Origin: a virus
Lineage: Duplodnaviria > Heunggongvirae > Uroviricota > Caudoviricetes
IMG/VR virus record: IMGVR_UViG_3300013121_000008
Location: 1-64,000 of that record
Length of the DNA stretch: 64,000 nucleotides
Strand: one strand, 5' to 3'
Shown here: positions 28,051 to 46,108 of the stretch, in pieces
How positions within the stretch are numbered: position 1 is the first letter of the stretch
How the letters are laid out: every line of letters starts with the position of its first letter
The notes under the pieces: model-generated
The model's input: the letters and a program-made list of their open reading frames with translations, nothing else
The model's database searches: none
Told to the model about the DNA's origin: nothing
Position numbers and translations under genes: made by a program

Positions 28051-28060
28051 ATCTTGTTTT

Positions 28061-28618: not shown

Positions 28619-28673
28619 CTATTGGCTTTTACAAGGCTTTCTCTTCTCTACATAGGCTCCACTACCTTTCTTC

Positions 28674-29542: not shown

Positions 29543-29550
29543 GTAACCTC

Positions 29551-29868: not shown

Positions 29869-29897
29869 TTTTATTTACTCCTTGTTTTTTCGTTGAG

Positions 29898-30239
29898 TGG
29901 TGCCCCGAGCGGGACTTGAACCCGCACGATCTTTTAATCGGAAGATTTTCGTCCCAACTATTGCTTTCGCAACTAAGATAATGGTAATCTTATTTGTGGG
30001 CTGGACTATGCCTTCACCCTTCTCATTGAGTTAGGGTGCGCTCCGTCTAGTCTCTACACTTTTCTTAGGGAAATTAATGTCTAAATATACTTATGACGAA
30101 GATAGTCTTCGTGAAAACCTAAGACTTAGCTCGGCGTTGTCATTTCAGATTTCACCGAATTTGAAGCGATTCACATATGAAATTTCTTTCATAGTGCTCA
30201 ATTTATAAGTCTCCCGCGTCTACCATTCCGCCACCAGGG
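29898..30239 (-). tRNA. trnL: tRNA-Leu(TAA) interrupted by a group I intron in the anticodon loop (exons 30207..30239 and 29898..29949)
   Basis: The 5' exon reads GCCCTGG TG GCGGAATGGTAGACGCG GGAGA CTT (ends at U34). The 3' exon reads AAAATCTTC + variable stem-loop CGATTAAAAGATCG + GCGGG-TTCAAGT-CCCGC + TCGGGGC-A-CCA. The acceptor pairs perfectly and the spliced anticodon loop would be CTTAAAA. Confidence 0.6.
29950..30206 (-). ncRNA. group I intron (tRNA-Leu(UAA) anticodon-loop type, cyanobacterial/plastid-like)
   Basis: About 257 nt inserted between anticodon positions 34/35. The 5' end is ATAAATTGAGCACTATGAAAGAAATT and the 3' end is ...GGGACG (terminal G). Core elements AGTGTAGAGACTAGACGGAGCGCACCCTAAC and GAAGGCATAGTCCAGCC resemble the conserved R/S (P7/P3) elements of trnL(UAA) group I introns as recalled from memory. 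A GCGAAAGC GNRA-loop lies near the 3' end. Confidence 0.55.
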
Positions 30240-30763
30240 CCTAAAGTTCTTTTTGGGTTTTCTTTTGTACTCAGCACTAGCGCTGTCACGGATCAACCTA
30301 TTTTTTACTTAATAGGTGTACTAACCCAAAACCGTGATTTCTAACATGATACTTATTATGGGCTTTCAACCCTCTGAGTTTCTTAATTGTCTTACTCAGA
30401 GCCGAGACGTTGGAACCTCTTCGAAAAAATGTTCGCAATGTTGATTAGAAAATTACTTGTTGACGAACAAGCCTAACCGCCTAAGACAAGTAGTTTTCAA
30501 GCTTACTTGTTGTTTCTTGCCTTACTTAGACTGGCACTCGTTGTTGCAGACGAGCCTGTCCTCTCATATTTGCGTTCCTTGAGGTAGCGAACTTGATCGT
30601 TAATGAATTGAGCTTGAACTTACACTAGAACGCCTACGCGCCCCCTGACTCCGACAGGACTTTTCGATTACAAGTCGAATGTGCTTGGAACCGACCAAGG
30701 CTCCATGGACTGTTCGTTACCTTTCTTCGCTATTGGTCTAACTAGGAAAGATTGCTCAAAATG

Positions 30764-31015
30764 TTAGAAGCTTCTGCGTAGCTCTTCTCGAAGATACTCT
30801 TTATCTTGCTGGAGCCTCTCTACAGAAGTTTGTAGCCTACTAATTTGGATTTGCTGCTTTTCGATGATTTTGTTCGCGATATCGGTGATTTCGATTAGTT
30901 TTCCGAAGGCCACATGAAGAGCAACAATGTCTTTTTCCATCTTGCTAATTCTTTGATCTTGATCCATTGTAGCTCCTATGTTACGGATCGCTGGTGTCAC
31001 ACGGAGAGCCACCAC
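30764..31015 (-). CDS. hypothetical coiled-coil protein
   Basis: 83 aa ORF. Confidence 0.3.
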   Translation of the reverse strand: MVALRVTPAIRNIGATMDQDQRISKMEKDIVALHVAFGKLIEITDIANKIIEKQQIQISRLQTSVERLQQDKEYLREELRRSF

Positions 31016-31259
31016 TGCTACGACTCATCTCGTACTGGACATCGACATCCGATGCCTGATATGCACGAGCATGGAAGCCATGACACTGACGACCATCCTT
31101 CTTGTAGGCGCCATAGTCTACTACTTGATTGCCCGTGGTTTTGGCTTCGAACATAGCCGGTCGAATTAGTTCGGCAGCTCGCTTCGGGTCCGGAGTGGGA
31201 TCCATTGGACAGTCGACAACCGAATTGAAAGCTTGACGGGCGGCATTGGTGATAATCAT
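30981..31259 (-). CDS. hypothetical protein
   Basis: 92 aa ORF. Confidence 0.3.
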   Translation of the reverse strand: MIITNAARQAFNSVVDCPMDPTPDPKRAAELIRPAMFEAKTTGNQVVDYGAYKKDGRQCHGFHARAYQASDVDVQYEMSRSSGGSPCDTSDP

Positions 31260-32973
31260 CTTAGACTCCGCTATTTGATTTTATTTTTGTTTAAGGGTAA
31301 AGAGTGTTTGTTTTTGATGAGGTCCTTGCCATCTCAAGAATGAAGATGTCTTCAAAAAAAACAACAGGAAACAAACAACCTTGTCGAGAGGATTTATCTA
31401 CACTGATAAGTATGTTAAGCGTAGGTTTCAGTCTCTCAATTATTCATTGAGATTTATAGCCTTTCACCAATTGGAGGGGCCGCTTAAACCCTAACAGAAT
31501 CTTTCCGCAGTCTGTTAACTGGCCGTGTCGTGATCGCGTCACGGGTAGATTGTACACACATTAGCTATTGTTTCCCACTCACTGCTGGTTGACTCTATTT
31601 AACATAAGAGGTTATGTCTCTCTATGAGAGATCTCCGGCGCATTGTGTACTGGTGAGTATTTGTCGAGTTCTGTAGGATATCCAAAAGTGCTGATTACTC
31701 TATTCTACGGCTAGCCCAACTTGAAGCCATCAGACACTACTCGACTATTGGTTGCCCAATCATTTGCATGACCCGCACTCGGTTGCTACCAGCCACCTTT
31801 CTAACTGGTATTCATCGTTCTAAGGGCCGCTAAGCCATTGAGGTCAAAGTGAACGATTACGGAACCTATTGGACTGGAGTGCATTGGGCGTAAGAAGGTT
31901 ACCTTGATTTGCGTCTCTTAGGTTCTTCTTTTAAGGGGTCGCCCAACCCTTTTTGATTTGTTCAGATGGATACGTCCTGACTGTGATTCCATCTTTTTCA
32001 TAAACAGTAGTAAAGTCAGTTTGTTCGCTACTGTTGAATTCCCAGTTTTCTCTGGTCTTAATATCAAGCTTTACGTACTTGATGTAAAAACCCACTTATT
32101 TTTCAAAGTAAGGTCGAGATATATTTCAATCTCTCTTTAATCACGGCCTGCACGACCCTTCGGCTGAGTTTCTGGTCTAATCAATTAGACCAAGGTTTTA
32201 TGGGATTGACGCATTGGGACTTGAACCCTTCGTGATATTGAACGTTAATCACAACATTCATTCTCAGAACATCCAGGAGGTGACTCTCCATTTGTGATGC
32301 GCCATGAAATTTGCGAAGTCAAGGTTAAAGTTTCCTTCGCCGGAACTACCAAATAGCCGAATCTTGTCGGTCACAAAGCTCTTACGAGACGATAGTATTT
32401 AAGTTCTTTATGGTTTTCGCGTCCCCACCATCAAAGCAGTCAGGAGCTACCTGACAATGAATCACAGTGTTTAAATCTCTATACAGAAGAAGACTCTAGA
32501 GAGAATGATTTTTACCAGACTTATCTCTTCTTAGCGTTACTGGTAACTGTGAAGATTTTGCTGGACTACCAGCCAGTCCCTTTATTTACGGCATATACCG
32601 ATATTTTGGAACGTCTTAGCCAGGGTATTAATGCACCCTGTAAAAATGTGAGGTGAAGACTATCCCTCGTCCCGGCTTTCGTCACCCTGTACAGTTATCA
32701 GGGCCCGGTTTGAGCATCTATTTATTTTTGAGGCTTTTCTGTTTACCCTCTCCGTCAGTAGCTGTATAGATGCTAGTTCTACTGAGTTTATGTACAGTCT
32801 CGTTACATCCTGTACGTGGTAGTTCCCTAACCGTTGTACTACTTTATAGTGTCGTCGTAAGGACTTATCCTAGGTTGTCCTGGTTTGCTAAACCCACACT
32901 CAACAGAGCCCGGCGGCACGTCTCCGATTTGCTTTCGCGTACCCTTTTGAGCGATGTTGATTTTCATGGCTTC

Positions 32974-33198
32974 CTACTTGCTAGGGACGACTTCGAATTC
33001 GATTTCGACCCAAGTAACTAGTGTATCGTTGTTAAAATTATACATGTCACCAGTTGTGAGTTCGACTGCGCGCTTTTGATGCAATTGTGCGCTGAGGGGC
33101 GTCATGAGATAGTATTCATTATTCGTGAAGAAAGTATCTCCAGGCTCGACGTACTGAATACACATTTCCTTACCAGAGATATTTTGCTTATATTTCAT
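32974..33198 (-). CDS. hypothetical protein
   Basis: 74 aa ORF. Confidence 0.3.
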   Translation of the reverse strand: MKYKQNISGKEMCIQYVEPGDTFFTNNEYYLMTPLSAQLHQKRAVELTTGDMYNFNNDTLVTWVEIEFEVVPSK

Positions 33199-33749
33199 GG
33201 TTTCTCCTTGTGGTGAAGGGCGTAGGTCGCTTCCCCTTCGTAAGCCCCATAGGTTACCTCAGAAGAGCTAGTTACTCTCTGTAGGGGATCCTACTGCTCT
33301 AGATTACAGTAGTTATTTGATTGTCCCGCAAGCGCGCCAATTGGGACAAAATGTTGTAGAGTAATAGAGGATTTGAAGGACCCAGGAACCTGCGTAATAG
33401 CTTACGCGCAAGCTTCTTACCTCTACAAACTGTCCACTCTACAAAAATGTTGTGCGGTTATTGAATATCCACGGTAGAGCGAAGCTCACCTACCCACCGC
33501 AAGTCCTGTATTTCGAATTACTCACGATATTCGCAGGGCATATGACCTCCCTACGCCGCAGGTTTCGCGCACGCCTGTTGTTCGGATAGATAGGATTTAA
33601 TGGAGCCTTTCGGTTATCCAAATCCAGCGAGGTATCCTTTGAACTCTACTGGTGAAATTCATCAGGTTTCCAACGTTACCTGAATCACCCTTTTCTATTT
33701 TGATTGACCAAAGAGTTTCGGAACTCTTTAGGTAAGGGATTGTGACTTG

Positions 33750-33980
33750 TTAAGTCAGGTTGGGGAAGCACCTGTTACAGCCGTGGTTTCCACACATGGC
33801 CGTCAGGTGCATGTGCTTCTGCATGTTGAAGCCACTACCCTTGGTGGTCTTCTTCTTCCTCTTTCCGTCCCGTCCCTGAGAGGCGTAGAGAGCCTTTCGA
33901 GCCTCTCGTGCCTGGATACGTTCCTTCTTGCGGCGTTCCTTGTTCTTGGCGCGACTTCCACGCCCACCCTTGAGTGCCAT
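33750..33980 (-). CDS. hypothetical basic protein with C-terminal Cys/His cluster (putative nucleic-acid binding)
   Basis: 76 aa; K/R-rich N-terminus and HMHLTAMCGNHGCNRC. Confidence 0.4.
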   Translation of the reverse strand: MALKGGRGSRAKNKERRKKERIQAREARKALYASQGRDGKRKKKTTKGSGFNMQKHMHLTAMCGNHGCNRCFPNLT

Positions 33981-33983
33981 TTT

Positions 33984-34289
33984 TTACTCCGTTTCCTTAG
34001 TGTCGTCCCAGTCGTTGTAGACCGGGAACTCGTCCACGATGTCGAACATGGGCACGGCGGGCCGGTTGCGCGCCAGCGGCTCCGTGTCGTAGAACGCCAT
34101 CTCGGGAACCTTCTCGGTCCGGTCCCCATGCTTCAGATGAACCCGCACGTTCAACATGGAGATGCAGCCTTCGTTGTAGATGTCGAGCACGGTGTAGCGG
34201 TTGCCGCCGCTGGTGATGATCTTGTCGTTCTTGTTCATGACTACTTCATCCGGGTGTGATTGGGAACCGGAACCCAGGCGGTGCTCCAC
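33984..34289 (-). CDS. hypothetical protein
   Basis: 101 aa ORF in the GC-rich island. Confidence 0.35.
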   Translation of the reverse strand: MEHRLGSGSQSHPDEVVMNKNDKIITSGGNRYTVLDIYNEGCISMLNVRVHLKHGDRTEKVPEMAFYDTEPLARNRPAVPMFDIVDEFPVYNDWDDTKETE

Positions 34290-34823
34290 TGGTTGTCTCG
34301 ATCCTTCCCGACTCCAGGAGCCGGGGGATGGGCAGGACCCTTCAGGTAGGTCTTGTTCTTCTGCTGCGAGGCAGGTCCACCCTGCTTCTGTCGGTCGTTG
34401 TACCGCTCCTCGTAGCCTTCGCGGTTCTTTCGGCGGTTGGAACCCAACCAGGTGTGCTTGCTCATGTTGCTACTCCCAGATGAAGCGGGCAATGAAGCAG
34501 AACACCACGGCACTGGTCGTGGACGAAATCCCGAGCATGTACCACAGGAATGCGTTTACGTTGTTGTTTTCCATTTTCTTAGCTCCACAGGTAGTAGATG
34601 ATGGAGATGAACATGATGATCGAGGCGATTCCCGCCAAGATCACGAAAAACAGGAGGATGGCTTCCGTCAGAGTGAAGCCCTTGCGATTGAACATTGTCT
34701 TTTAACCCTCTACTTAAACCCAATAGTGAGGAACGAAATTGTTCTCTGTCTTCGGGTGGGAGCCTAGGTATTCGCACTCCACTTATTTTGTAGTTTGTCC
34801 CCACATTTCTATGGGGTTTGGCA

Positions 34824-35057
34824 TCACATCGCGAGGAATACGATGCCCTTCTTTTCTGCTTCGTTGTACTTTCGAAGCACTTCCTTCTCCGACGGCTCGG
34901 GCTCTCCCCACCCTCGGTTGTTCTTGATGGCTCTGAGGGCCTCTTCCCTCGTTAGCCTACGACCGTGTGGGATAGAACGTTCCTGTTCTTCTACCTCGTC
35001 CCCACAAACGAGAATCTCCTCGTTTACGGGAAGGTAGATTACCTGAAGGTTCGGCAT
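34824..35057 (-). CDS. hypothetical protein
   Basis: 77 aa ORF. Confidence 0.3.
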   Translation of the reverse strand: MPNLQVIYLPVNEEILVCGDEVEEQERSIPHGRRLTREEALRAIKNNRGWGEPEPSEKEVLRKYNEAEKKGIVFLAM

Positions 35058-35074
35058 CTGTCACCTCTAGTTAT

Positions 35075-36142
35075 TTACTGGGTTTCCTGTCGGTACTCCC
35101 AGTTCTCCATCTCCAGTCGCTGCCAGTCAGCCTTCTCGCGAACGAAGAGGGCGCTCCAGGGGGTTTTGAGTGAAGTAGGGGCATCGATGCCCAGTTCCTC
35201 ACCCTGACGCTCCTTGAGGGCCTCCAGACGCTCCAACGAAGCCATGGCGTAGATATACTGCTTGATGCAGTACAGCTTGGAGGACTTGGGGTTCTTGCTT
35301 CCCATCTCCTGCCATTCGTACCAGAAGATGGTACGAAACCAACCAGAAAGCTCCTTCTTCTTCGTCGGAGTCAGAGTCCCGTTGATCTCTTTCAGCAGCG
35401 TCACCATGGGCGCATTGTTGAACTCGATCCAGCGGCCATCTTCGAATCGTCCGTTCTGCCCCACACTGTAGGCCAGAGAGAAGATTGGCTCCATGTTGAT
35501 GGATTCCCCAGCGGCCTCGTTGATGGAACGAATCTTCTTCGCCATCGTCACGAAGTTGTCCAGCTCTCCTCGCACCTTCTTCCAGATCTTTCGACCCTTG
35601 AATGTGGGAGACTTGTTTCCGAAGACGGCCAGGATCCAGGACTTGATGCCCCGAATCGCCATCTCGTACTTGTAGGTGGCCTTGTCGACCTCCTCGTCAG
35701 TGAACGTACCCACGAATTCGAGAACGTCCTCGTCTCCGGTGATGACGGTCTTGATTCGCTCGAAGTCCGCATCGAGGGAGACGAGTTTGTCCTCCATCTC
35801 CCATTCCTGCATCTTGGACGCCCAGAAGCACGCCCGACGAAGGAACATTTCTTCCGGAGAGTCCTTGCTCCAGTGATTCGTCCCGATCTCGCCACCATCG
35901 CCGCTCTTTCGAACGGGGATGATGTTCCCGTCCTTGTCCTTGAGCGCGACCTTGTGGATAATTCCGTTCTTGTCAGGAACGTTCTTGTGGTACGCGCAGA
36001 CCTGAAGGATCGACTGCAGGTCCATGTTGTGCCAGTCGGGCAGGTCGCCTAGAGCGTCAGTTCGCTCGGACGTATCCTCCACTACGGACCCCATCTCCAG
36101 CTTGTCCTCGTGTTCGTTCTCGACTTCGACTTCGATTTCCAT
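35075..36142 (-). CDS. hypothetical protein, paralog family A/B (with 39160..40524)
   Basis: 355 aa; shares LPDW..M.L..I..VC...DG....P..D..GN.IPVRK and downstream blocks with the 454-aa ORF; preceded by SD AGGAGACA. Confidence 0.55.
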   Translation of the reverse strand: MEIEVEVENEHEDKLEMGSVVEDTSERTDALGDLPDWHNMDLQSILQVCAYHKNVPDKNGIIHKVALKDKDGNIIPVRKSGDGGEIGTNHWSKDSPEEMFLRRACFWASKMQEWEMEDKLVSLDADFERIKTVITGDEDVLEFVGTFTDEEVDKATYKYEMAIRGIKSWILAVFGNKSPTFKGRKIWKKVRGELDNFVTMAKKIRSINEAAGESINMEPIFSLAYSVGQNGRFEDGRWIEFNNAPMVTLLKEINGTLTPTKKKELSGWFRTIFWYEWQEMGSKNPKSSKLYCIKQYIYAMASLERLEALKERQGEELGIDAPTSLKTPWSALFVREKADWQRLEMENWEYRQETQ

Positions 36143-36555
36143 CGCTGTCTCCTGTGAAATTGTTATGTGCCACGGCTTTTACTTTGAAAACCCTCCTGCA
36201 CATTCTCCAATGGGACTTGAACCTTTGTCTTTATGGAGTTTTCGCCTGAGTATGCATCCCAGGCCCAAGAACTCTTCTTTACTTGCTTAAGGTAAAGATC
36301 TATCTTGGTTATATTTCTTTTGCAGGTTTTGTTGATTACATTTGTCCTGCACTCAACGAGTATTGATTTTCAACATCCCGTCAAAGTCTATTTCGTAACC
36401 AATTAAACTGAAGACTGAAATAAACTAAATATCTTCAGAGTGTTGTCTTTCGCGTGGTTCTTTGCCTTCAGGCTGGTTGCCCACCAAAGATACTCTACTG
36501 GCTAGTCGTTTGACCTTTGTAGAGGTTATCGTTATTTCCTCCTGTGACTAGTTGA

Positions 36556-36894
36556 CTAGTAGCGGGCGTGAACGTAGAAGTCCACGACCCTCACGATGGT
36601 GCCCTCCGGAAGTGAGAGGATGTCGACATCGGCGTTCGAGATGCTTTCGTGGAGCTTGATGGAGACGAGGGCCTTGGCCAGCTGGGCGTTGTGCTTCCCG
36701 ACGGTGAAATCGGTGATGCAGGATGGCTCCTGACCCGGTTCGGTGACGATGTAGTCCTCGACGTTCTCGGGCACCAAGTTGCCGGAGTAGCAGGTCTTTC
36801 GGAAGACGCGCCGGCTGGGACGAGACGGAACCTTGACGGTGATGATGGTGGTGGTGGTCAGCGTGGGCTTGAGCTTGGACATATTTTTCTCCAC
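36556..36894 (-). CDS. hypothetical protein
   Basis: 112 aa; SD GAGGTGGAG upstream of ATG. Confidence 0.45.
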   Translation of the reverse strand: MEKNMSKLKPTLTTTTIITVKVPSRPSRRVFRKTCYSGNLVPENVEDYIVTEPGQEPSCITDFTVGKHNAQLAKALVSIKLHESISNADVDILSLPEGTIVRVVDFYVHARY

Positions 36895-37682
36895 CTCTAC
36901 TTTAACTTGGTCGATTCATTCAAACCAAGTAGTGGCCTAGGATTTCGCACCACTTTATTTTGTAGATTAACCGTATTGTTTGACGGGCGGCAGCTCTACA
37001 TTCTGTTATTTTTGTTTTTTCTATTATTTTTTATTTTTGGGGCTTAGCTTTCTATCTCCATCGTCCACTTGGATTGCTATACTTAATTATGTATTGAGTA
37101 CGTGGGTTCTTTACCTTACAATTCATTGGGCCCGGGTTCTCAGATGAACTTACTCAGCGCTAAGTAAGTGCTGCTCCACCTTCGCTCACAGCTTCCCCGA
37201 CTTCGCTTGGCACCCAAAACATTAACCTATCAGTTTACTGAAAACTACCACAAACTAACTAACGAATGGCTGATCGCATTATGCTCTCCGATTATCGTTG
37301 AAGTTATTCCCTGAAAAAACTTAGTCTCTTTGAAATCCAATTAAAAAAGAAACTAGTCCATGGCACACCTCCAAGTTACTATTAGTTAGCAGCTACGTTA
37401 ATCTATTAGCCCCTACAGTGCCGATCATTGGGGTTCGGAGGTTATTTAGCCACGGGGCACTCTGTAGCTACATCCCGTAGTAGCAGTAGTCGATTCGCCC
37501 CAGGATGTTCTGGATGACGATGCCATCCTTCATCGTCCCGCCGCAAACCTTTCCACTGATGATTTCGTTGAAGTCATCGTCTACTCCATCTTTTTTTTGT
37601 AAGTCCCGCTAACCCCTTCAGTTCCCCTAACCTTAGAAGCTAAACTTACTTACTGACACAATAAAAACAATCAATAAAATAA

Positions 37683-37810
37683 TAAGAGAAGGTATTTAGG
37701 TATTTAGAAGGTCTTTTAGGTATTTAAAGGTGATTATAGGTATTTGAGGTAGTTTAGGTATTTGAGGGTGATTAGGGTATTTTGGGTATTTAAAGGTATT
37801 TTGGTATTTG
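37683..37810. repeat. tandem iteron-like repeats (GGTATTT core, ~10 copies at 11-12 bp spacing)
   Basis: AGGTATTTAGGTATTTAGAAGGTCTTTTAGGTATTTAAAGGTGATTATAGGTATTTGAGGTAGTTTAGGTATTTGAGGGTGATTAGGGTATTTTGGGTATTTAAAGGTATTTTGGTATTTG, located in a roughly 0.9 kb ORF-free gap. Confidence 0.6.
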
Positions 37811-38068
37811 TTTCGAAGTGGGGCGTATGCCCCTAAACCGAAAAAAGAAAGTAAAAGAAAAAGGGAGGATCTCTCCTCCCTCTTTCAGTGTGCCTACCGC
37901 TCGGCAAGCACGATGTACGTCGTATCCGGATATTCGATGATATCCCACCACCACTTGCGGCGGTTATACGTAGCCATGAACGACTCCAGAGAGCCTTCCC
38001 AGTTCATCTCACCACCCTTGTACATGATCACGATCTTCATGATTGGCTCCTATGCATACGGAATGTAT

Positions 38069-38108
38069 GCATTTAAAAAGGAAATGGCCCCGAAGGGCCA
38101 AATCCTAG
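38069..38108 (-). promoter_or_regulatory. island cassette copy 1: stop-proximal GC hairpin (GGCCCTTCGGGGCC) + TTTCCTTTTTAAATG box
   Basis: Plus strand CATTTAAAAAGGAAATGGCCCCGAAGGGCCAAATCCTAG; on the coding strand it is followed by the second hairpin TGCATAC..GTATGCA, SD and ATG. Confidence 0.55.
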
Positions 38109-38112
38109 AGTT

Positions 38113-38343
38113 CTAGTAGACGTAGGACTGCGAACCCTCCATCAAATACTCCTCCAACTCACCGCAAGCATTGTTGCTCCATCCCTTGCTCCCGAGGAGA
38201 TAGAGGACGCCGTTCACCTTGACCCTAACGATGTGGGGGTCCGCGAACAGCCTCGCGATCCCAGAGGGATGCATCTCCCTCTTCTCGATCCCTTCGTAGA
38301 CCACGCTATCCTGGATGAACGAGTACATGTAAGACACCTTGAA
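38113..38343 (-). CDS. hypothetical protein
   Basis: The ATG at 38343 is preferred (AGGAGG 5 nt upstream) over the ORF-track start at 38364. Confidence 0.4.
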   Translation of the reverse strand, partial: FKVSYMYSFIQDSVVYEGIEKREMHPSGIARLFADPHIVRVKVNGVLYLLGSKGWSNNACGELEEYLMEGSQSYVY

Positions 38344-38373
38344 CATTCTACCTCCTATGAGCATGATTGCTCA

Positions 38374-38410
38374 TTTAAAACGAAATGGGGAGTTTCACGT
38401 CCCCATTCCG
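38374..38410 (-). promoter_or_regulatory. island cassette copy 2
   Basis: CATTTAAAACGAAATGGGGAGTTTCACGTCCCCATTCCG; second hairpin ATGAGCA..TGCTCAT, then AGGAGG. Confidence 0.5.
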
Positions 38411-38418
38411 TCGTCTCG

Positions 38419-39003
38419 CTAGTCGTCCCACTCCGAGTCACACTCGAAGCACGGAGTTCCCAATTCCGTGCCGTGAACGCACGTCTCGATCTTCTTGGTC
38501 TTCCGACGCACGTTCTTCACGATCCGGGGCTGGAATAGGGCTTCCTGCTCGGACTTCTGCTCCTCGACGGCAGGCGGTTCCTCTCGCACCACCGGCTTCG
38601 GCACCACCGGCTTCTCGACCGGCTTCGTGGGTTCCGTCCCCATCTTCGGGAACGGAAGGAGGAAGATCCAGAAGGGCGCCCCGTGGAAGGACAGGGGGAT
38701 GCCCCGCCGATTGGTCTTCATCTTCTCGACGGCTCCCGCGAACCACCGGTTCCCGCCCTGCCAGTAGTCCTGGCGATCAAAGGACACTTTCACCACGCGA
38801 GTGTTGCTGTCCCAGGCCACAATGGCCCGGTTGTGCCACTCAACCCCGCACCACTTGAACAAGATCTTGATCTTCTCCAGCTCCTCCACCGTGGGCTGAC
38901 GGAGGGTCACTCGGGACAGGATGTGCCCCACCTTCTCCTGCGAGGTCAACTCACGGTTGAAGCTGATCTGAGCGAGGTCCTGGTTGTACACGAATTCACG
39001 CAT
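38419..39003 (-). CDS. hypothetical protein with Pro-rich linker and C-terminal zinc ribbon
   Basis: C-terminal CVHGTELGTPCFEC; PKPVVREEPPAVEE linker; the ATG at 39003 is preceded by GGGAG. Confidence 0.45.
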   Translation of the reverse strand: MREFVYNQDLAQISFNRELTSQEKVGHILSRVTLRQPTVEELEKIKILFKWCGVEWHNRAIVAWDSNTRVVKVSFDRQDYWQGGNRWFAGAVEKMKTNRRGIPLSFHGAPFWIFLLPFPKMGTEPTKPVEKPVVPKPVVREEPPAVEEQKSEQEALFQPRIVKNVRRKTKKIETCVHGTELGTPCFECDSEWDD

Positions 39004-39088
39004 GACTGACTCCCGTATGATTGTGTCATACACACAGACCTTGTTGATCCAGTAAGTTCTACACTATGTAGATCCTGGTACGGTTGGT

Positions 39089-39121
39089 CCAGTTAAAAGA
39101 AAAGGTGGGTTGTTATCCCAC
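39089..39121 (-). promoter_or_regulatory. island cassette copy 3
   Basis: CCAGTTAAAAGAAAAGGTGGGTTGTTATCCCAC; second hairpin TCTACAtagTGTAGA. Confidence 0.5.
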
Positions 39122-39159
39122 AATTTCTTCACCCCTTATAGCTCAGGGGGTCACGAGTT

Positions 39160-40524
39160 CTACTTAGCCAGGAAGCGCTCACGCTCCTCGCTGGTCATGT
39201 GGACGTTCTTCACGTCCACCGTCCAGTGGTCAGGGCGCCGGATCTCCTCCAGCCACTTGTGGTTGAAGAGGTCGAACTTGAAGCCCGACTTCTCGTTCCG
39301 GCCCTCGCTGAGCCACGACCAGTCCATCTCCTCCTTGCGGAAGTAGTCGGACCAGTTGGTCTTCATGAGGTTCACCGTCTCACGGTCGACGTGCTTGTCT
39401 TCGGCCAGAGCCTCCAACAGCGCGATCTGGATGAGCGAACCCATCCAGCGGAGCAGGGTGCCCTTGACGGCATCCGACATCCCCGTCCGGACCTCAGCCC
39501 AGAACCAACGCTTGAAGAAGCCGTTGAACTTCTTCTTCGTGTCGTTCTGGACGTAGCCGCCCGTGGGGAGGTGCTTCTCCACGCTCGACCAGATGTGGGG
39601 CCCGTTGGCCTTCTCCCACTTCTGATCGATGTAGAGGCCACCCCACTGGAGGATGGAGATCACGGCACACTTCTCGTCGAAGTCCACCGCGAACTCCTTG
39701 GCCTCCTGCACGGCGCAGTAGAACGTGGTCTTCACGTCCTTCCACACCTTCTTGGCCGTCTCCTTGCCGAAGACGCGGACCAGCCAGCGACGGAACTCCA
39801 GCGAGTCCCGCTCCAGCTTCTCCTGTTCCCGGAGGGTCATCGCCTCCAGGATGTCCTCGGCCGAGGTGAACGGGGACTTCTCCCACACGGACTGCGAGGC
39901 GCAGGCCACCTCGATGTCGTGCAGGAACTTGTCCACGTCGTAGCCCCATTCCATGAGCAGGAACTCGGCCCGCGCTGCCCGGTTCAGGGCCACGTCGCTC
40001 GGGGACTCCTCACCCCAGGTGTTCTTGCCCATCGAGGGCTCGTACACCGGATCCTTGCGGACGGGGATGAGGTTGCCCTCGTTGTCCCGCATCGGGGTCC
40101 GGATGACGATGCCATCCTTCGCCTCCGACTTGACGTAACAGACGCCTAGGATGATCTCCTCCAACGTCATGCTACCCCAATCGGGAAGCGCCTTGAAGAC
40201 GTCATCGCCGTCCTGGTCCTCGTCGGCCTCCACCGCCACGATCCCGGTCGGGGAGTCCTTGTAGTCCATCTCGGGCTGGACCACCTCCTCCTGCGCGAAG
40301 GACTTGTTGCGGCCCCACAGCGCGAAGAGGTCGAGGACGACTCCCTTCGCCACCATCCGACCCGTCTTCAGGTCGCGGTAGCGGTCCCCGGAGATCGCGA
40401 TGTCCATCTCGGCCAGGAAGAGCGCCAGAGGCCCGAAGGCCTTGGTGGCGGCCTGGGAGACGACGGAGGGGACGGTGTTGATGATCTTGGACATTGCTGA
40501 CTCCACAATGCGTACTGCCGGCAC
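39160..40524 (-). CDS. hypothetical protein, paralog family A/B (with 35075..36142)
   Basis: 454 aa; collinear similarity to the 355-aa ORF across several blocks. Confidence 0.55.
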   Translation of the reverse strand: MPAVRIVESAMSKIINTVPSVVSQAATKAFGPLALFLAEMDIAISGDRYRDLKTGRMVAKGVVLDLFALWGRNKSFAQEEVVQPEMDYKDSPTGIVAVEADEDQDGDDVFKALPDWGSMTLEEIILGVCYVKSEAKDGIVIRTPMRDNEGNLIPVRKDPVYEPSMGKNTWGEESPSDVALNRAARAEFLLMEWGYDVDKFLHDIEVACASQSVWEKSPFTSAEDILEAMTLREQEKLERDSLEFRRWLVRVFGKETAKKVWKDVKTTFYCAVQEAKEFAVDFDEKCAVISILQWGGLYIDQKWEKANGPHIWSSVEKHLPTGGYVQNDTKKKFNGFFKRWFWAEVRTGMSDAVKGTLLRWMGSLIQIALLEALAEDKHVDRETVNLMKTNWSDYFRKEEMDWSWLSEGRNEKSGFKFDLFNHKWLEEIRRPDHWTVDVKNVHMTSEERERFLAK

Positions 40525-40735
40525 GCGCGGTTGGCCGTTTGGCCGAAATCATTTTGATGACACTATGTCACCTGACGACAGTTGGTCTTCTGCCGAGTGT
40601 TACTCACTACAGGATCTTACCCAAGGATCAATGGGCCTTGAGGACTTACGAGCTACTGCCTCTATCCCGGTTTGTCGGTTAAGAAAAACAAAAGGGGCAA
40701 ACTAGTGCCCCAGTTGTTTCGATGTCTTGCTTTCG

Positions 40736-40954
40736 CTAAGACATCTTCCACGCGAGGCGGTCCGAACCGCTGCGGCGGCGCTCGTTGTAGTCTCCCGAGG
40801 AGTCCAGGGTGTTCACGATGGAGGCCAACTCAGAGCTCGCCACGCGCCTGTCTTTCCTCGACGCCAACTTCTTCTCCTCCTTCCACGAGTGACGCTGGCC
40901 CTTACAGGGCTTCGAACGAGAAACGGAGCCGTGGGCGATGTTAGAACGGGACAT
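40736..40954 (-). CDS. hypothetical basic protein
   Basis: The ATG at 40954 is preceded by AAGGAGA; the longer ORF-track start would overlap the upstream regulatory cassette. Confidence 0.4.
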   Translation of the reverse strand: MSRSNIAHGSVSRSKPCKGQRHSWKEEKKLASRKDRRVASSELASIVNTLDSSGDYNERRRSGSDRLAWKMS

Positions 40955-40987
40955 CTCTATCTCCTTGTGAACTGGAGCGGGATTGCT

Positions 40988-41025
40988 CCATTTAAAAGGA
41001 AAAACCAGTGTACAAAGCCCACTGG
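40988..41025 (-). promoter_or_regulatory. island cassette copy 4
   Basis: CCATTTAAAAGGAAAAACCAGTGTACAAAGCCCACTGG; second hairpin TGGAGC..GCTCCA, then AAGGAGA. Confidence 0.5.
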
Positions 41026-41041
41026 CAGGCATAGGACAGAC

Positions 41042-41158
41042 TACATCTTGTCACCATAGAAGTAGTCGGTGATCAGAATACCCACCACGATCAGGGCAAC
41101 GTAGCCGCAGAGCCAGATCATCCCGGCATCCGGGGACCAATCGATGTTGGGGAACATT
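41042..41158 (-). CDS. hypothetical small membrane protein (38 aa)
   Basis: MFPNIDWSPDAGMIWLCGYVALIVVGILITDYFYGDKM; SD GGAGA upstream; flanked by cassette motifs on both sides. Confidence 0.35.
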
Positions 41159-41198
41159 CAATCTCCATGAATAGCTGTACTTGATTGTACAATGCTAT

Positions 41199-41237
41199 CC
41201 AGTTAAAAAGAAAATGAGCAGTTTATAGTCTTGCTCA
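41199..41237 (-). promoter_or_regulatory. island cassette copy 5
   Basis: CCAGTTAAAAAGAAAATGAGCAGTTTATAGTCTTGCTCA; second hairpin ATAGC..GCTAT, then GGAGA. Confidence 0.5.
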
Positions 41238-41254
41238 GGACTTGGGAAACTACT

Positions 41255-41411
41255 TGTTCTCTTCGTAGAAGGCCTGCGCGGCCTCCTCGGTGAAGAACGA
41301 GTAGCAGCTAATCCCCGGGTTCAAGCCCTCCGGGAAGTCGCGCTTCAACTGCTCGTGGTTGCCGAACCAGAAGGCGACGCTAGAAGAGGTCAAAACGAAG
41401 AACTTGAGCAT
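41255..41411 (-). CDS. hypothetical small protein (52 aa)
   Basis: MLKFFVLTSSSVAFWFGNHEQLKRDFPEGLNPGISCYSFFTEEAAQAFYEENK; flanked by cassette motifs. Confidence 0.35.
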
Positions 41412-41442
41412 GTTTACTCCAAGCAGGTTGGTTAGGCTCCTG

Positions 41443-41513
41443 CGTTTAAAAGAAAGGGCCTGTCTATGAAGCCGACAGGCAGGCTATAGGCCCCGAAGGG
41501 CCAAATGCTAAGC
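41443..41513 (-). promoter_or_regulatory. island cassette copy 6 (double terminator hairpin)
   Basis: GCGTTTAAAAGAAAGGGCCTGTC..GACAGGC...GGCCCCGAAGGGCC; second hairpin GCAGG..CCTGC, then TGGAG. Confidence 0.5.
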
Positions 41514-41515
41514 GA

Positions 41516-41767
41516 CTAGAACAACCGCAGCTCCATGTAGCCATCGGGCACCCACACGGACACCCGAATCTTGTGCTCCCGGGCCATGGCGATGATCTCC
41601 ATCGCCTTCTCGGGTTCGATGTCCAGGATCATCAACTGGTCGTTACCGTCGATGACGGTACAAGTCCCGAAGGTCTTGGAGAAACTAATCTCCAAGTGGG
41701 ACCCGATCTGGGCCGCCAACGACTGGATGATAATGCCGAAGTTCTTCATGTTGAGGTGGCAGTGCAT
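41516..41767 (-). CDS. hypothetical protein (paralog of 41859..42098)
   Basis: 83 aa; NFGIIIQSLAAQ...AMEIIAMAREHKIRVSVWVPDGYMELRLF parallels NINMIAALELGV...GRKLIEKAKSLGVKVITFTFDGRDFTLA. Confidence 0.5.
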   Translation of the reverse strand: MHCHLNMKNFGIIIQSLAAQIGSHLEISFSKTFGTCTVIDGNDQLMILDIEPEKAMEIIAMAREHKIRVSVWVPDGYMELRLF

Positions 41768-41811
41768 TTCTGGCTCCAGTATCGGACATAGTGAATCTAT
41801 GTCTAGCGATA

Positions 41812-41850
41812 CCAGTTAAAAGGAAAAGGCCCCCGAAGAGGCCTAATCCT
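41812..41850 (-). promoter_or_regulatory. island cassette copy 7
   Basis: CCAGTTAAAAGGAAAAGGCCCCCGAAGAGGCCTAATCCT immediately after the stop of 41859..42098; second hairpin GACATAG..CTATGTC, then TGGAG. Confidence 0.6.
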
Positions 41851-41858
41851 TAGTGTCC

Positions 41859-42098
41859 CTACGCCAAGGTGAAGTCGCGGCCGTCGAAGGTGAACGTGAT
41901 AACCTTGACCCCCAAGCTCTTCGCCTTCTCGATGAGCTTCCTCCCCTCCTCGAAGGGGACTTCTTCGCAGATGGCCCAAACCACACCATTCTTCGCGAGG
42001 CAAAGGCTGTTGCGAAGGGGCCCAATGCACACCTCGTCCACAACTCCCAACTCCAGGGCCGCGATCATGTTGATGTTACCGGTCATCTTGTACTCCAA
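41859..42098 (-). CDS. hypothetical protein (paralog of 41516..41767)
   Basis: 79 aa; SD TGGAG upstream. Confidence 0.5.
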   Translation of the reverse strand: MEYKMTGNINMIAALELGVVDEVCIGPLRNSLCLAKNGVVWAICEEVPFEEGRKLIEKAKSLGVKVITFTFDGRDFTLA

Positions 42099-42125
42099 GT
42101 GAAGACAATCGTTAGTTCATGTCTT

Positions 42126-42165
42126 CAGTTAAAAGGAAAAGGCCCCCGAAGAGGCCTAATCCTAG
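42126..42165 (-). promoter_or_regulatory. island cassette copy 8 (38-nt identical to copy 7)
   Basis: CAGTTAAAAGGAAAAGGCCCCCGAAGAGGCCTAATCCTAG; second hairpin GAAGACA..TGTCTTC, then TGGAG. Confidence 0.6.
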
Positions 42166-42184
42166 TTTCTGCTTCGTTTAACGC

Positions 42185-42532
42185 CTAGCAGTAGGCGAGG
42201 TCGTCCCACCTGTAGGGCAGAACCCTACTGTGGGACTGGAGGAACCTCCACTCGCGGTGGAGGCTGTCGATCTCTTCCACGAGCGGGAAGAGTTCCGTCG
42301 TGTCGCAGCCCTGCTTGTAGCAGAACTGCAACACCCTCACGGCCGCACCGATCTCTCGGGCAACCTCCGACCCCTGCAGCGTTGCCGCTACAGAGATCAG
42401 CTCCCGTGCCTCCGCCCGACACAAGGCCGGACGGTCTTCGATCCACGTTGCGACTTCCGCCGCAACCACGACGACCCCACCCAGCATCGCGAGGATGCAG
42501 GTGAGGACGCAGAGCAGAGACGCGAACGCCAT
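42185..42532 (-). CDS. hypothetical membrane protein
   Basis: The ATG at 42532 (MAFASLLCVLTCILAMLGGVVVVAA, TM helix) is preferred. The ORF-track extension runs through the GTTGCTGGTTGTT tandem repeat. Confidence 0.4.
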   Translation of the reverse strand: MAFASLLCVLTCILAMLGGVVVVAAEVATWIEDRPALCRAEARELISVAATLQGSEVAREIGAAVRVLQFCYKQGCDTTELFPLVEEIDSLHREWRFLQSHSRVLPYRWDDLAYC

Positions 42533-43187
42533 CTTCTCTCCTTTTTTGTTGCTGGTTGTTGTTGCTGGTTGTTGGTTGGGGTTGAACGGCTTTAGAGTAC
42601 CGTTCGCCTCTGTAGAGGACTCAGGGGTTGAAGGATTCATGCCTATTCCCTTCATGGCACTCGGTTTTCCATAGACCGAGAACTGTTACTTCTCTACTTG
42701 CATAGAGCGGTGAGCGTGCTTCGGGGACTTTCACCCCAGGATGCTCACGTAGCCTGCTTAATAGCGCCCTTCCGCGAAGAGCATCTATCGACCTGTTACC
42801 CAGGTTCCAGCCGTTACTAGTGAAGGGGGAGACTATCATCTACCGTATGGCATCCAGTAGATGTAGCAATCACGTTCGCGGTCTGGCGGCATACTGGTAC
42901 ACCTGTCCCTTCAGGACTATTCACAATCTCCAGTGCTAGAAGACTGCTGTTTGCAGGTGGGTACGTGTGGCACACATACCTTCCTCTGATGTGGCAAGCA
43001 TCAGGCTACCTGTATCGTCACCTGGGGGTATCCCCAAGCCTCCGTTACCATTTCTGGTGTAGGGTGAACCCCTACCAGTAGCATATCCCGTATACTAGTA
43101 GCACCGTAGTACCACTAGTCTTACTGTATGTTGTGTGCATACAGAGGACTGGGCTTGTACCCGCAAGGACTACTGTTCAGTAGTCTG

Positions 43188-43229
43188 CCATGTAAAAAGA
43201 AAAGGTAGAGTATACACATACACTCTACC
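43188..43229 (-). promoter_or_regulatory. island cassette copy 9
   Basis: CCATGTAAAAAGAAAAGGTAGAGTATACACATACACTCTACC. Confidence 0.45.
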
Positions 43230-43367
43230 TGATCCGCTCTACGCAAAGAGCAAGATCCCCATCATAATAAGCCCAACAAGGGCCATCACAATGGACTTCC
43301 CATCGTACTGAGACATACTAACTCCTTCTTGAGTTGATAGTGAGCATAGCACCATGCTATACTACTT

Positions 43368-43400
43368 CAGTTAAAAGAAAAGACAGAGATGTACTCTGTG
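43368..43400 (-). promoter_or_regulatory. island cassette copy 10 (left of the island/structural-arm junction)
   Basis: CAGTTAAAAGAAAAGACAGAGATGTACTCTGTG; second hairpin ATAGCA..TGCTAT, then AAGGAG and a 26-aa TM ORF (43249..43326). Confidence 0.45.
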
Positions 43401-43878: not shown

Positions 43879-44697
43879 ATGAGTAATAGTTTAACAAGTA
43901 AAAATAAAAATCCGCAATTTGGAATAATAGATTACGAAAATAATAGTATCGCCAAGACAGAAAGACAAAATGAATTATTTAATAATATTTCATTAAGTGA
44001 AGAGTCTAATAAGAAATTGTTTGTAAAATATAATAATAAACAAGTTGAAAAATTTAAAAAAACTTTAAATAGATATAAATACGGATTAAACGCTTCTGCC
44101 CCTATAATTTGTATGGGACCAGAAAAATGTCCCTTTTTTCATGCCTGTCCAATTGGAAATGGCATTAAAGTAGATCCAGTAATTAATAAAAAAGTACCTA
44201 TTTATGATTCTTTACAAGATTTCCCTATTGGAGAGATGTGTTCTTTAGAGTTGAATTTTATGGAAGATAGATTAAAGTCTTATTTGAATGAGTTCGACGT
44301 TGATCCTATAAATGCATCAGAATTGGCTTTAGTTAATGATTTATCTTTGGTTGATTTGTATAAAAATAGATGTGTTCTTTACCTTAGTGCGGGCGATCTT
44401 CAAAATGAAGGTATAGATTTCTTTAAATCTGAAGAAGCTTATGATTTACAAGGCAATTTAATTAATAGAAAATATCAAGAGCATCCTATTTTAAATGTTA
44501 TGGAAAAACTAGAAAAAAGAAGACATAGAATTTTAGAAGAATTAATAGCTACTAGAAAATCAAAGATGAATATAATGGTTAAGATAAAAGAATCACAAGA
44601 GGATTCTAGAATGTTAACCGAAATAGAAACGATTAGAAAAGCTTTAGAATCTTCTGATAATGAATCTAAAGACGATATCATTATTGAAATAGAATAA
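43879..44697 (+). CDS. hypothetical protein
   Basis: 272 aa ORF. Confidence 0.45.
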   Translation: MSNSLTSKNKNPQFGIIDYENNSIAKTERQNELFNNISLSEESNKKLFVKYNNKQVEKFKKTLNRYKYGLNASAPIICMGPEKCPFFHACPIGNGIKVDPVINKKVPIYDSLQDFPIGEMCSLELNFMEDRLKSYLNEFDVDPINASELALVNDLSLVDLYKNRCVLYLSAGDLQNEGIDFFKSEEAYDLQGNLINRKYQEHPILNVMEKLEKRRHRILEELIATRKSKMNIMVKIKESQEDSRMLTEIETIRKALESSDNESKDDIIIEIE

Positions 44698-44728
44698 AAA
44701 TTGAAATAGAATAAAAATAGAATAAAAA

Positions 44729-46108
44729 ATGCGAAACCAGAATGATTTAAAAAATAGATTTACTATAGGAAGCAAAATACATGGTTTTTCTGACCAGGGT
44801 ATAGCTTTTATGTCTAGAAAATCTAATACTGATTTTGGTTCTCCCTGGCAAGGTTTAAATAATTCTACTTCATTATTTATGTTAAATAATATGTCAAATA
44901 ATTCTACTCCAGCTTTTGCCGCTAATAGCATTCCAATTGATCAACGAGTGGCTGATTTTAGACAATTTGACTATCAAACACCCTTACAAAAGAGACTTAT
45001 AGAAGCAGAATTCACTAAAAAGAATATACAATCCATTGATAGAATGTACTTTTTAGATCCTGCTTTAACGACCCCTTTAGCGTCGGAAGACTATGCTAAA
45101 TATGGTCTAAATACTAGTAAAAAGTTACAAGTAATAGACATTACTAAAAATAATTATAGTGTTGAAGACGCTGATACTATTTTATTTAAGAGTTTTGGTG
45201 GAGAAGCAGCCGTTCGTTTAACAGGTATAGATGCTCCAGAAGTTAGTCATAGTATTTTCTCTGATAAATTTTCCCTTTCTGATAGACAACCCTATGGCGA
45301 AGAAGCTAAAAATTATTTAAGAGATAAATTAAAAGCTGCAAAGTCTGTTAAATTAGTATTAGATCCTCAACAAGATACCTATGGTAGATCGTTGGGTGTT
45401 GTTATAGCTGATGGAGAAAATCTTAATTTAGATTTAGTTAAGAAAGGTTTTGCTTTAAGTTTGCCATTCGGAGATCCAAAAGAAGATTTAATGTCTCGTT
45501 CTGCTATAAGTAATTTTGAAAATATGGCCTATAGAAATAAAGAAGGTCTTTGGAAGAGTAGTTACTGGCAAATATATAAACAAACAATGTCAGATAGAGC
45601 TAGAGTCACAAACGTTTCTCTTCAAAGAGTTGATAGATTAGCTAAAAATTTGAATTTAGCGGGTTTACAGTCTACAATGGAATATGCAGAGGCAAATAGC
45701 ATTAATGATCATATTAAAGCCGCCTCTTCTATATTAAGACCTAAAATGCAAAATATAAATGAAAAAAAGGAATATGAAGAAAGAAATAAGTTAAAATTAA
45801 ATTATGGTTTTAGTCAAAATAAGATTCAAAGTCAATTATTAGTTGAAACAAAAGAATTTATGAACTATAATTCTTCTATGAATACAAAGAAAAATAACTT
45901 ATATGAATCTAATATGAGTAAATTAAGGCTTAATAAATCATCTATAATAGATTCTACTTATCAATCAACATCTTCGTATAGAGAAGCCCCTTCATTTTAT
46001 GTTCAAGAATATAATAAAAAATTAAAAAGAAAAAAAAGAACTGGTCAAGCTCAAAGAATGGCCAACAAAACAATGAACTCGAATACGCAAAATGCTTCTG
46101 CGTGGTAA
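44729..46108 (+). CDS. staphylococcal-nuclease (SNase/thermonuclease)-domain protein
   Basis: Central ...AAVRLTGIDAPEVSH...RQPYGEEAKNYLRDKL...VKLVLDPQQDTYGRSLGVVIADGENLNLDLVKKGFA matches the SNase motifs (GIDAPE, catalytic R/E, D.YGR). Confidence 0.6.
   Translation: MRNQNDLKNRFTIGSKIHGFSDQGIAFMSRKSNTDFGSPWQGLNNSTSLFMLNNMSNNSTPAFAANSIPIDQRVADFRQFDYQTPLQKRLIEAEFTKKNIQSIDRMYFLDPALTTPLASEDYAKYGLNTSKKLQVIDITKNNYSVEDADTILFKSFGGEAAVRLTGIDAPEVSHSIFSDKFSLSDRQPYGEEAKNYLRDKLKAAKSVKLVLDPQQDTYGRSLGVVIADGENLNLDLVKKGFALSLPFGDPKEDLMSRSAISNFENMAYRNKEGLWKSSYWQIYKQTMSDRARVTNVSLQRVDRLAKNLNLAGLQSTMEYAEANSINDHIKAASSILRPKMQNINEKKEYEERNKLKLNYGFSQNKIQSQLLVETKEFMNYNSSMNTKKNNLYESNMSKLRLNKSSIIDSTYQSTSSYREAPSFYVQEYNKKLKRKKRTGQAQRMANKTMNSNTQNASAW

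Follow-up and report, generated by a model that had tools for sequence, protein, structure and literature searches.

Short direct repeats that flank an AT-rich region form the anatomy of several well-described replication origins, including those of SaPI elements, phage P4, oriE of phage T4 and the lambda-type origins. Short repeated words are also carried by the pac site of phage P1 and by the flanks of the T7 terminal repeats. The arrays recognized by ribbon-helix-helix (RHH) proteins typically have units of 4-11 bp that are spaced 7-11 bp apart and wind around the helix, as at R1 parC. Here we describe a tandem array of the word GGTATTT in a gap between genes of a tailed phage, which is represented by IMG/VR virus record IMGVR_UViG_3300013121_000008. 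The DNA analysed comprises positions 1 to 64,000 of this record, and we refer to this entire 64-kb stretch as the window. It is part of a large, AT-rich, 0305phi8-36-like myophage whose genome is probably longer than 200 kb, and the word-cluster and skew results given below hold within these 64 kb.

The array resembles the short-iteron origins (SaPI, the P4 ori and crr octamers, the T4 oriE 12-mers and the lambda-type origins) in that direct copies of a short word occupy an early non-coding stretch beside an AT-rich block, and in that the word differs between related elements. It differs from them in having no recognizable cognate initiator gene and no host-factor boxes, in its irregular spacing of 8-11 bp, and in that its repeats are not kept in relatives. 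By analogy with known elements, repeats beside a conserved AT-rich block are an origin-like or packaging-site-like anatomy. On the basis of sequence comparisons, we judge the array to be a lineage-specific set of constrained cores that makes up one arm of a conserved, compositionally dyad-symmetric non-coding module.

Tandem Repeats Finder (TRF) and word-cluster analysis both bear out the existence of a GGTATTT tandem array in the gap (Table 1). An earlier note on this DNA had counted about ten copies, and the total is 13, of which nine are exact and four are variants of the form GGTNNTT. TRF reports periods of 9, 19, 20 and 38 with a best score of 122, making the array the highest-scoring tandem repeat of the window; at period 9 it has 70% matches and 12% indels. 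It is likewise the top 6-, 7- and 8-mer cluster across the 64 kb. Exact GGTATTT occurs 16 times in the window, with nine of these copies inside the 119 bp of the array, and no second cluster of the word is present in the window at one mismatch or fewer. Units are mostly preceded by A or G, and they are separated by spacers of 1-4 nt that differ in sequence. Read on the minus strand, the array is (AAATACC)n with 35 C residues and a single G in 119 nt, and no other 120 nt of the window are as strongly G>C-skewed as the plus strand of the array.

Start-to-start distances between successive units are 8, 11, 9, 10, 10, 9, 9, 10, 9, 9, 10 and 8 bp, with a mean of 9.33 bp, and the Fourier peak of the array lies at 9.25-9.5 bp. 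The earlier note had given a spacing of 11-12 bp and had drawn from it an argument for helical-turn phasing. This argument fails because the spacing was mis-measured: the distances span 8-11 bp, their mean is not a multiple of 10.5 bp, and the sites drift by approximately 40 degrees per unit around a 10.5-bp helix rather than sharing one face.

Changes affect 6 of the 91 core positions, and GGT and TT are invariant in all 13 units. In a simulation, admittedly crude, of a uniformly decaying 9-mer array that received 8 indels (the number implied by the spacer lengths), 13 intact cores were kept in at most 6e-5 of runs. The array contains no long perfect internal duplicates of the kind that recent slippage would leave. 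The array is non-random, and its cores are much better kept than its spacers.

The only close relative is a 3.9-kb Logan contig (L001, SRR28338213) that is approximately 85% identical to the window and that stops at window position 38257, before the array. A profile of the family of a 444-amino-acid (444-aa) protein encoded near the gap yielded nine further, more distant members, whose contigs could be retrieved. The order of the 444-aa, 194-aa and 83-aa homologues followed by a spacer is kept in contigs L166/L167, L168, L169 and L174, each relative having one spacer poor in open reading frames (ORFs) downstream of these early genes. L166, L167 and L168 also have the divergent junction with structural genes, which are 46-52% identical to those of the window, and L169 carries a 49-aa gene at the place matching a 48-aa gene that borders the gap in the window.

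In gene orientation, the module found in these spacers opens with a terminator, which is followed by an arm of about 120-170 nt that is rich in A and C and almost devoid of G, by a core made up of a T-run and ATTGTGT, and by a C-poor, G-rich arm. The first arm is the most strongly C>G-skewed 120-nt segment in every related locus, and the most strongly G>C-skewed segment follows the core in L168 and L174. The window array takes the place of the G-free arm, and only in the window is this arm a periodic repeat. The AT-rich core of the window, which lies directly beside the array, matches the relatives at the corresponding place in 15 of 15 nt (L174), 18 of 19 nt (L166) and 9 of 9 nt (L168), and it is the sole block of the window module with clear sequence matches to them. 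The relatives' spacers additionally carry an (A/T)ACTCCGC box in two or three copies of constant orientation, and this box is scarce elsewhere in those loci.

None of the four relatives that reach the tract (L166, L168, L169 and L174) has a GGTATTT array, and the array is therefore lineage-specific. Neither AA nor C periodicity was detected in the relatives' arms. We also considered A-tract periodicity, and hence curved DNA, as the conserved property, and this was ruled out because only the window is periodic. L174 has a short tandem array of its own in the other arm (GATTGAGT, 5.9 copies, positions 4669-4715) and a 32-nt duplication in two copies that carries ACTCCGC boxes. As far as these sequences indicate, short repeats recur in the module while the word changes between relatives.

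With these features in mind, we tentatively favour the possibility that the array is a multi-copy set of putative protein-binding sites and that it makes up one arm of an origin-like cis element, while recognizing that this proposal may well be wrong. The array would be a window-specific, tandemly amplified form of one arm of a cis element that is conserved in an uncharacterised lineage of large myophages. Its cores would bind many copies of one sequence-specific phage DNA-binding protein, and the bound protein would coat approximately 120 bp as a spiral, at 9.3 bp per site, beside an easily melted AT-rich core. Such an element would most likely be a replication origin, in which the repeat-bound protein helps to open the core. 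The word that is repeated is not the same in all relatives (GATTGAGT six times and a 32-nt repeat twice in L174, ACTCCGC boxes in L166, L168, L169 and L174), as would be expected if binding sites and protein were to change specificity together.

Several observations are consistent with this proposal. The array is real, unique in the window and non-random, and its conserved cores with spacers of 1-4 nt are very unlikely to result from uniform decay, as judged by the simulation. The element as a whole is conserved in position, in composition pattern and in core sequence, and the region adjoining the array (37640-37729) has a GC content of 24%. Read 5' to 3' on either strand, the skew passes from C>G to G>C, which is the polarity expected of an origin. 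The tandem array that L174 has in the homologous element, and the presence of short repeated words in both arms, likewise fit a repeat-based binding element.

Other results weigh against an origin bound by a repeat-specific protein. The GC-skew inflection at the array for which the earlier note had proposed an analysis is not seen at genome scale: there is no change at 37.7 kb, the cumulative curve reaches its minimum at about 43.6 kb, at the change in gene orientation, and the local positive blip at the array arises because the array itself has 35 G and one C. The gap contains no DnaA boxes. It also contains no ACTCCGC box, which calls for caution in equating the window module with those of the relatives. 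The earlier note had expected candidate initiators among the genes of the surrounding early-gene island, where no initiator, partition or DNA-binding gene was recognized; searches of Pfam, PHROG and PDB for an initiator, helicase or recognizable DNA-binding gene nearby were negative, and AlphaFold models were unusable, although an initiator too divergent to be recognized may be present. The spacing of the array is irregular and off the helical repeat, and the uniqueness of the array holds within the 64 kb analysed, out of a genome that probably exceeds 200 kb. The gap of the window was not among the matches to an nhmmer profile built from the relatives' modules, and the homology between the modules consequently rests on synteny, composition and the 15-19-nt core. 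Absence of the repeat from related genomes had been named earlier as evidence against an origin, and the four relatives indeed have neither the array nor its periodicity in the corresponding tract. What is conserved in the arm is therefore its composition and not a binding word.

In another explanation, whatever function the arm has calls for no more than a G-free, A/C-rich tract of roughly fixed length, the word was amplified by slippage and unequal exchange in the lineage of the window, and GGTATTT binds nothing. In the same place, the tract of the relatives is aperiodic and contains other A-rich words (AAACTA, AAATAAC and AAACAAATCAAA), and by our reading of the sequences approximately 165-175 nt separate a small GC-rich element from the core in the window, L166 and L168 alike. 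Decaying gene remnants are present in the surrounding gap, and heptamer arrays are common as plain microsatellites in viral contigs. Some of the latter (e.g. L036, L087 and L095) are built from GGTATTT plus N and share both the heptamer and the 8-11-bp periods of the array, but they have a constant period and identical spacers, whereas the window array combines conserved cores with variable spacers. A plain slippage microsatellite would show a constant period and near-identical units, and the array does not conform to this description. Furthermore, simple duplication with uniform decay would not be expected to leave the cores intact while spacer length varies, and neither the invariance of GGT and TT nor the lack of long perfect duplicates is readily accommodated. 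On balance, we regard a compositional or neutral expansion as doubtful, but as an explanation to be taken seriously.

When IMG/VR and JGI metagenomes were scanned with a DNA pattern for the array, the matches were confined to microsatellites unrelated to it, repeats within coding sequence and one contig end resembling a telomere, and none had flanks in common with the window; a pattern for the module core had 45 chance matches in IMG/VR, none with module features. A metagenome contig (L141 1-75, SWCD01020468.1) opens with (GGGTATTT/GGGTGATT)n at an 8-bp period beside GC-rich DNA; it looks like a telomere-type end that is unrelated to the window. Literature searches on the heptamer and on repeats at terminal-repeat boundaries yielded nothing of use.

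An alternative function for a conserved element of this kind is that it marks the boundary of a long direct terminal repeat or a pac site, with the early genes from the structural module up to the gap lying inside the terminal repeat, the physical end of the genome falling within the element, and the short repeats binding the small terminase subunit. The portal proteins of the window and of Bacillus phage 0305phi8-36 and its relatives are distant homologues (27-31% identity). In 0305phi8-36, hypothetical genes on the minus strand lie immediately next to the structural module, within a terminal repeat of 6,479 bp. The outer end of this terminal repeat falls in a gap of 775 bp that is free of ORFs (NC_009760 212049-212822) and that carries five direct repeats of approximately 19 bp (GACATAACGTGTGCGATAC) and three of 15 bp (CTTGAATGACTTGTG). 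These are located just outside the left terminal-repeat boundary (L111 4078-4243 and 4278-4471; NC_009760 ~212077-212470), and the last of them ends exactly at the boundary. The two phages thus share minus-strand hypothetical genes by the structural module, followed about 6 kb from the orientation switch by an ORF-free gap of approximately 0.8-1 kb with direct repeats; the gap is 5.7-6.7 kb from the switch in the window and approximately 4-8 kb in its relatives. GC content at third codon positions (GC3) falls past the element in L168 and L174, and contig L169 ends inside the element.

Against this interpretation, the kinship with 0305phi8-36 is very distant, and the genes in its terminal repeat are not homologous to the island genes: a hidden Markov model of the 444-aa family had no match in the regions examined from 0305phi8-36, KLEB27-3 and ME3. 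The 0305phi8-36 repeats are 19-mers at 24-25-bp spacing without sequence similarity to GGTATTT, and two other relatives of 0305phi8-36 have no comparable arrays to the left of the structural module. Moreover, L168 reads straight through the element, and the window itself has no clear GC3 step. We therefore consider a terminus or packaging site to be distinctly unlikely.

The features of the element could also be read at the level of RNA. On the transcribed (minus) strand, (AAAUACC)13 would form a leader that contains C but no G, stays unstructured and serves as a loading site for a protein on the RNA, the most obvious candidate being Rho, as a backup terminator or timing gate behind the intrinsic terminator, with another RNA-binding protein as the alternative. 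The setting of the array is suggestive in this regard. At eight island junctions, an intrinsic terminator (often with a UUCG loop) with a T-run ending in TTTTAACTG is followed by a 5' hairpin and, in most cases, by GGAG-N6-ATG, and no sigma-70-like promoter is evident at any of these junctions. The AACT motif, like the ACTCCGC boxes of relatives, is a candidate for a phage-specific promoter or for a site of RNA processing. The minus strand of the gap opens in the same way as the other island units: the T-run of the terminator closes with TTTTAC, a variant of the TTTTAACTG motif, and the small hairpin GGGGCATACGCCCC stands in for the 5' hairpin that elsewhere precedes the Shine-Dalgarno sequence. 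The array then replaces the Shine-Dalgarno sequence and the ORF.

Composition is also in keeping with such a leader, as the minus strand has the 35 C to one G noted above with a CC dimer every 8-11 nt, and its predicted RNA fold is no more stable than those of shuffled sequences. In composition and predicted lack of structure, the array agrees with what a Rho utilisation (rut) site calls for, namely at least 70-80 nt of G-poor, unstructured RNA with C>G. It is similar to known rut sites in being a G-free, C-containing tract, predicted to be unstructured, with regular YC dimers. Relatives conserve the G-poor composition and not the sequence, RNA-binding proteins tolerate spacers of variable length better than DNA-binding proteins, and a twister-P1-like ribozyme and tRNA-like T-arm minihelices are among the RNA elements present in relatives' spacers. 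However, known rut sites are not tandem repeats, the 29% C content is below that of classical rut sites, and the array tract lies past a strong intrinsic terminator. This reading also leaves the conserved T-run core and the mirrored G-rich arm unexplained, and we judge it decidedly improbable.

Transcription of the opposite strand would yield a different product, namely a plus-strand small RNA (sRNA) of approximately 200 nt with the repeat (GGUAUUU)n, driven by a promoter at 37653-37680, ending at hairpins at 37820-37886 and acting as a sponge for a protein or for ribosomes. A sigma-70-like sequence (CTGACA-16-TAAAAT, 10 of 12 matches) does end 10 nt before the array, hairpins do follow it, and several units (AGGUGAU, GAGGU) are Shine-Dalgarno-like. 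Nevertheless, promoter-like sites are not clearly enriched (12 found versus 7.1 +/- 2.3 in shuffled sequences) and their position is not conserved in relatives, which also lack the repeat. The T-run of the plus-strand hairpin is weak, and the plus-strand fold has a z-score of -1.5. The match to the Rfam model PrrB_RsmZ reaches 13.8 bits (E 1.7), where the gathering score is 44, and the units are GGU rather than the GGA that recurs in hairpin loops of CsrA/RsmA-sponge sRNAs of the RsmZ/CsrB type. All of this makes the sRNA highly improbable. ToxI-type repeats of type III toxin-antitoxin systems, units of about 36 nt with a terminator and a toxin gene after them on the same strand, were considered as well and rejected, as the 38-nt period is a higher order of the 9-nt units and no plus-strand gene follows the array, the DNA there being coding on the minus strand.

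A partition centromere or operator for an RHH protein (of the ParR/parC, ParG/parH or omega-heptad type) is extremely improbable: the variant unit AATCACC resembles the omega heptad WATCACW, and many short units at sub-helical spacing also characterize the pSM19035 omega heptads, TP228 parH and R1 parC, but those RHH arrays have fixed spacing beside par or regulator genes, whereas the window array has variable spacing with no such gene found, the island holds no recognizable ParA, ParM, TubZ or RHH gene (Pfam/PHROG), the phage looks like a lytic jumbo-type myovirus, and relatives lack the array. Even taken together, the plus-strand sRNA and the partition site remain very unlikely.

Should the element prove to be an origin or a genome terminus, no cis-acting landmark would have been known before it in this phage lineage, which is represented solely by metagenomic sequences, whose tested early proteins have no recognizable family match and for which neither IMG/VR nor the phage reference collection contains a relative. 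In that case, the 13 cores would provide a defined DNA bait for the binding protein. Comparison of the relatives points to a rapid turnover of the repeat word within a conserved framework, a matter that bears on how origins or packaging sites change specificity. A more specific and quite improbable version of the origin proposal is that the element is the origin, or origin plus terminus, of an undescribed large-phage lineage with a genome of 28-35% GC, an early block with GC3 of 0.8-0.98 and fast repeat turnover (GGTATTT 13 times, GATTGAGT six times, and ACTCCGC boxes). If this were true, the lineage would be a natural series for the switching of initiator and site specificity. No easier to dismiss is a second possibility, in which the array is expressed as RNA and its repeats would titrate an RNA-binding factor of the host. 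If compositional expansion alone is responsible, the array would be an ordinary minisatellite that is mainly useful as a strain marker.

Table 1. Coordinates of the GGTATTT array, of its surroundings and of related features. Positions refer to the window unless a contig is named.
Feature	Position	Strand	Description
Gap between convincing genes	36895-37893		999 bp; between two minus-strand island genes
48-aa ORFan gene	37894-38040	-	GC3 0.78; upstream of gap in transcription order
Strong intrinsic terminator	37857-37886	-	13-bp stem, long T-run; ends 48-aa gene
Small GC hairpin GGGGCATACGCCCC	37820-37833	-	Between terminator and array
Array, 13 units, core GGTNNTT	37691-37809	+	9x GGTATTT, GGTCTTT, 2x GGTGATT, GGTAGTT
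AT-rich core	37656-37685	-	30 bp; minus strand reads TTATTATTTTATTGATTGTTTTTATTGTGT; directly beside array
G-rich, C-poor arm	37582-37655	-	Minus strand reads GTCAGTAAGTAAGTTTAGCTTCTAAGGTTAGGGGAACTGAAGGGGTTAGCGGGAC...; compositional mirror of array arm
GC3-periodic probable relic	37468-37581	-	Ends ..DDDFNEIISGKVCGGTMKDGIVIQNILGRIDYCYYGM*; resembles residues 111-132 of 444-aa protein
Rest of gap	36895-37467		Two more Shine-Dalgarno-ATG starts with immediate stops; A-rich tract 36990-37045 (T-rich on plus strand)
108-aa ORFan gene	36556-36883	-	GC3 0.87; downstream of gap; no homologue found
444-aa and 355-aa paralog genes	39160-40494 and 35075-36142	-	ORFans
Eight island junction copies	38067-38084, 39087-39104, 40986-41003, 41197-41214, 41810-41827, 42123-42140, 43186-43203, 43365-43382	-	T-run ending TTTTAACTG
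ACTCCGC boxes in relatives	L166 13136, 13347; L168 6251, 6412; L169 3434, 3493, 3592; L174 4389, 4431, 4463		
High-GC3 early blocks	Window 28000-43200; L166 5500-12500; L168 2384-8600; L174 972-3903; L169 928-3130		

The earlier note had described the gap as ORF-free over about 0.9 kb. This holds in so far as 999 bp separate convincing genes, but it requires amendment for one coding-like segment beyond the G-rich arm. The 444-aa and 355-aa ORFan proteins encoded to either side of the gap are paralogs (E 3e-23), and because this segment resembles the 444-aa protein, it is probably the relic of a third copy of the family. It shares 22 of 23 nt with positions 40098-40120, and a TGGAG-N6-ATG that precedes it (ATG 37577-37575) is out of frame with the relic. 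In the remainder of the gap (Table 1) we found no ORF, Rfam match or significant fold. Folding of the entire gap on both strands gave z-scores of -0.6 to -1.5, which are not significant, and Rfam had no match over the whole gap. Recoding of stop codons, an idea prompted by a CTA suppressor tRNA encoded in the window, opens no ORF across the gap.

The relatives' spacers and their borders hold further elements. In L174, a twister-P1-type ribozyme candidate is present at 5217-5283 (plus strand) with 52.9 bits and E 3.5e-11, below the gathering score of 67.2; its core nucleotides are aligned, and it lies within a GC-rich, structured-looking spacer region of approximately 300 nt. Minihelices resembling tRNA, with an acceptor-like stem and a GGTTCGAATCC-type T-arm, are found in L166 (~13545-13600) and L174 (~4850-4880), and ARAGORN calls neither of them. 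A perfect 332-bp tandem duplication containing a small gene and a terminator lies directly before the spacer in L166 (12432-13108), and could be either real or an assembly artefact.

Genes of the window are on the minus strand up to approximately 43 kb and on the plus strand from 43.9 kb, the plus-strand block encoding the portal, major head protein and tail sheath. The minus-strand part includes 15 tRNA genes, a CCA-adding enzyme and NAD-salvage genes. Across approximately 28-43 kb, GC content climbs from about 0.3 up to 0.59, and minus-strand ORFs of this island have GC3 values of 0.75-0.93 versus 0.13-0.2 for the structural genes. None of the ten convincing island ORFs (35075-42655) has a Pfam or PHROG match. 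Searches of other kinds were equally unproductive: megablast of 36-39 kb and 44-60 kb against phage records gave no match, IMG/VR scans with the 444-aa and portal proteins gave no relative, a GTDB genome scan and a PDB search with the 444-aa family gave no match, no homologue came from protein searches for which the 108-aa gene or nine concatenated island proteins served as the query, and an exact look-up of the 355-aa protein gave no match. AlphaFold models of the 108-aa and 444-aa proteins have a predicted local distance difference test score (pLDDT) of approximately 40. The 444/355-aa family comprises approximately ten cluster representatives at 50% identity among 1.84 billion (P0001-P0010), with no known domain or solved structure.

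The contrast in GC3 between the early block and the structural genes (0.75-0.98 versus 0.13-0.22) is kept in relatives at 35-50% protein identity, whose early genes have values of 0.8-0.98 beside structural genes at approximately 0.2. It is thus a trait of the lineage and not an assembly chimera or a recent transfer. GC3 in the relatives peaks beside the structural module and falls with distance, and the trend in the window is less regular. Codon adaptation or biased gene conversion near genome ends may be the cause of the GC3-rich early block.

Several features of the window outside the gap also merit mention. A group I intron match on the minus strand at 29982-30216 (46.7 bits, E 2.5e-9) falls just below the gathering score of 50, and it sits in an ORF-poor part of the island at approximately 29.9-33.7 kb. 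Two unusual tRNAs are encoded on the minus strand. The one at 4216-4296 has the anticodon CUA of an amber suppressor and is given as Pyl by ARAGORN, and the other, at 28061-28135, is odd in that its called anticodon has just two bases ('cc'). When TAG was treated as a sense codon, no gene became convincingly longer. Finally, the second-strongest word cluster of the window consists of four to five copies of AAATAGAA at 44607-44753 (plus strand), where it overlaps the end of a 272-aa gene and the start of a gene with an endonuclease domain.

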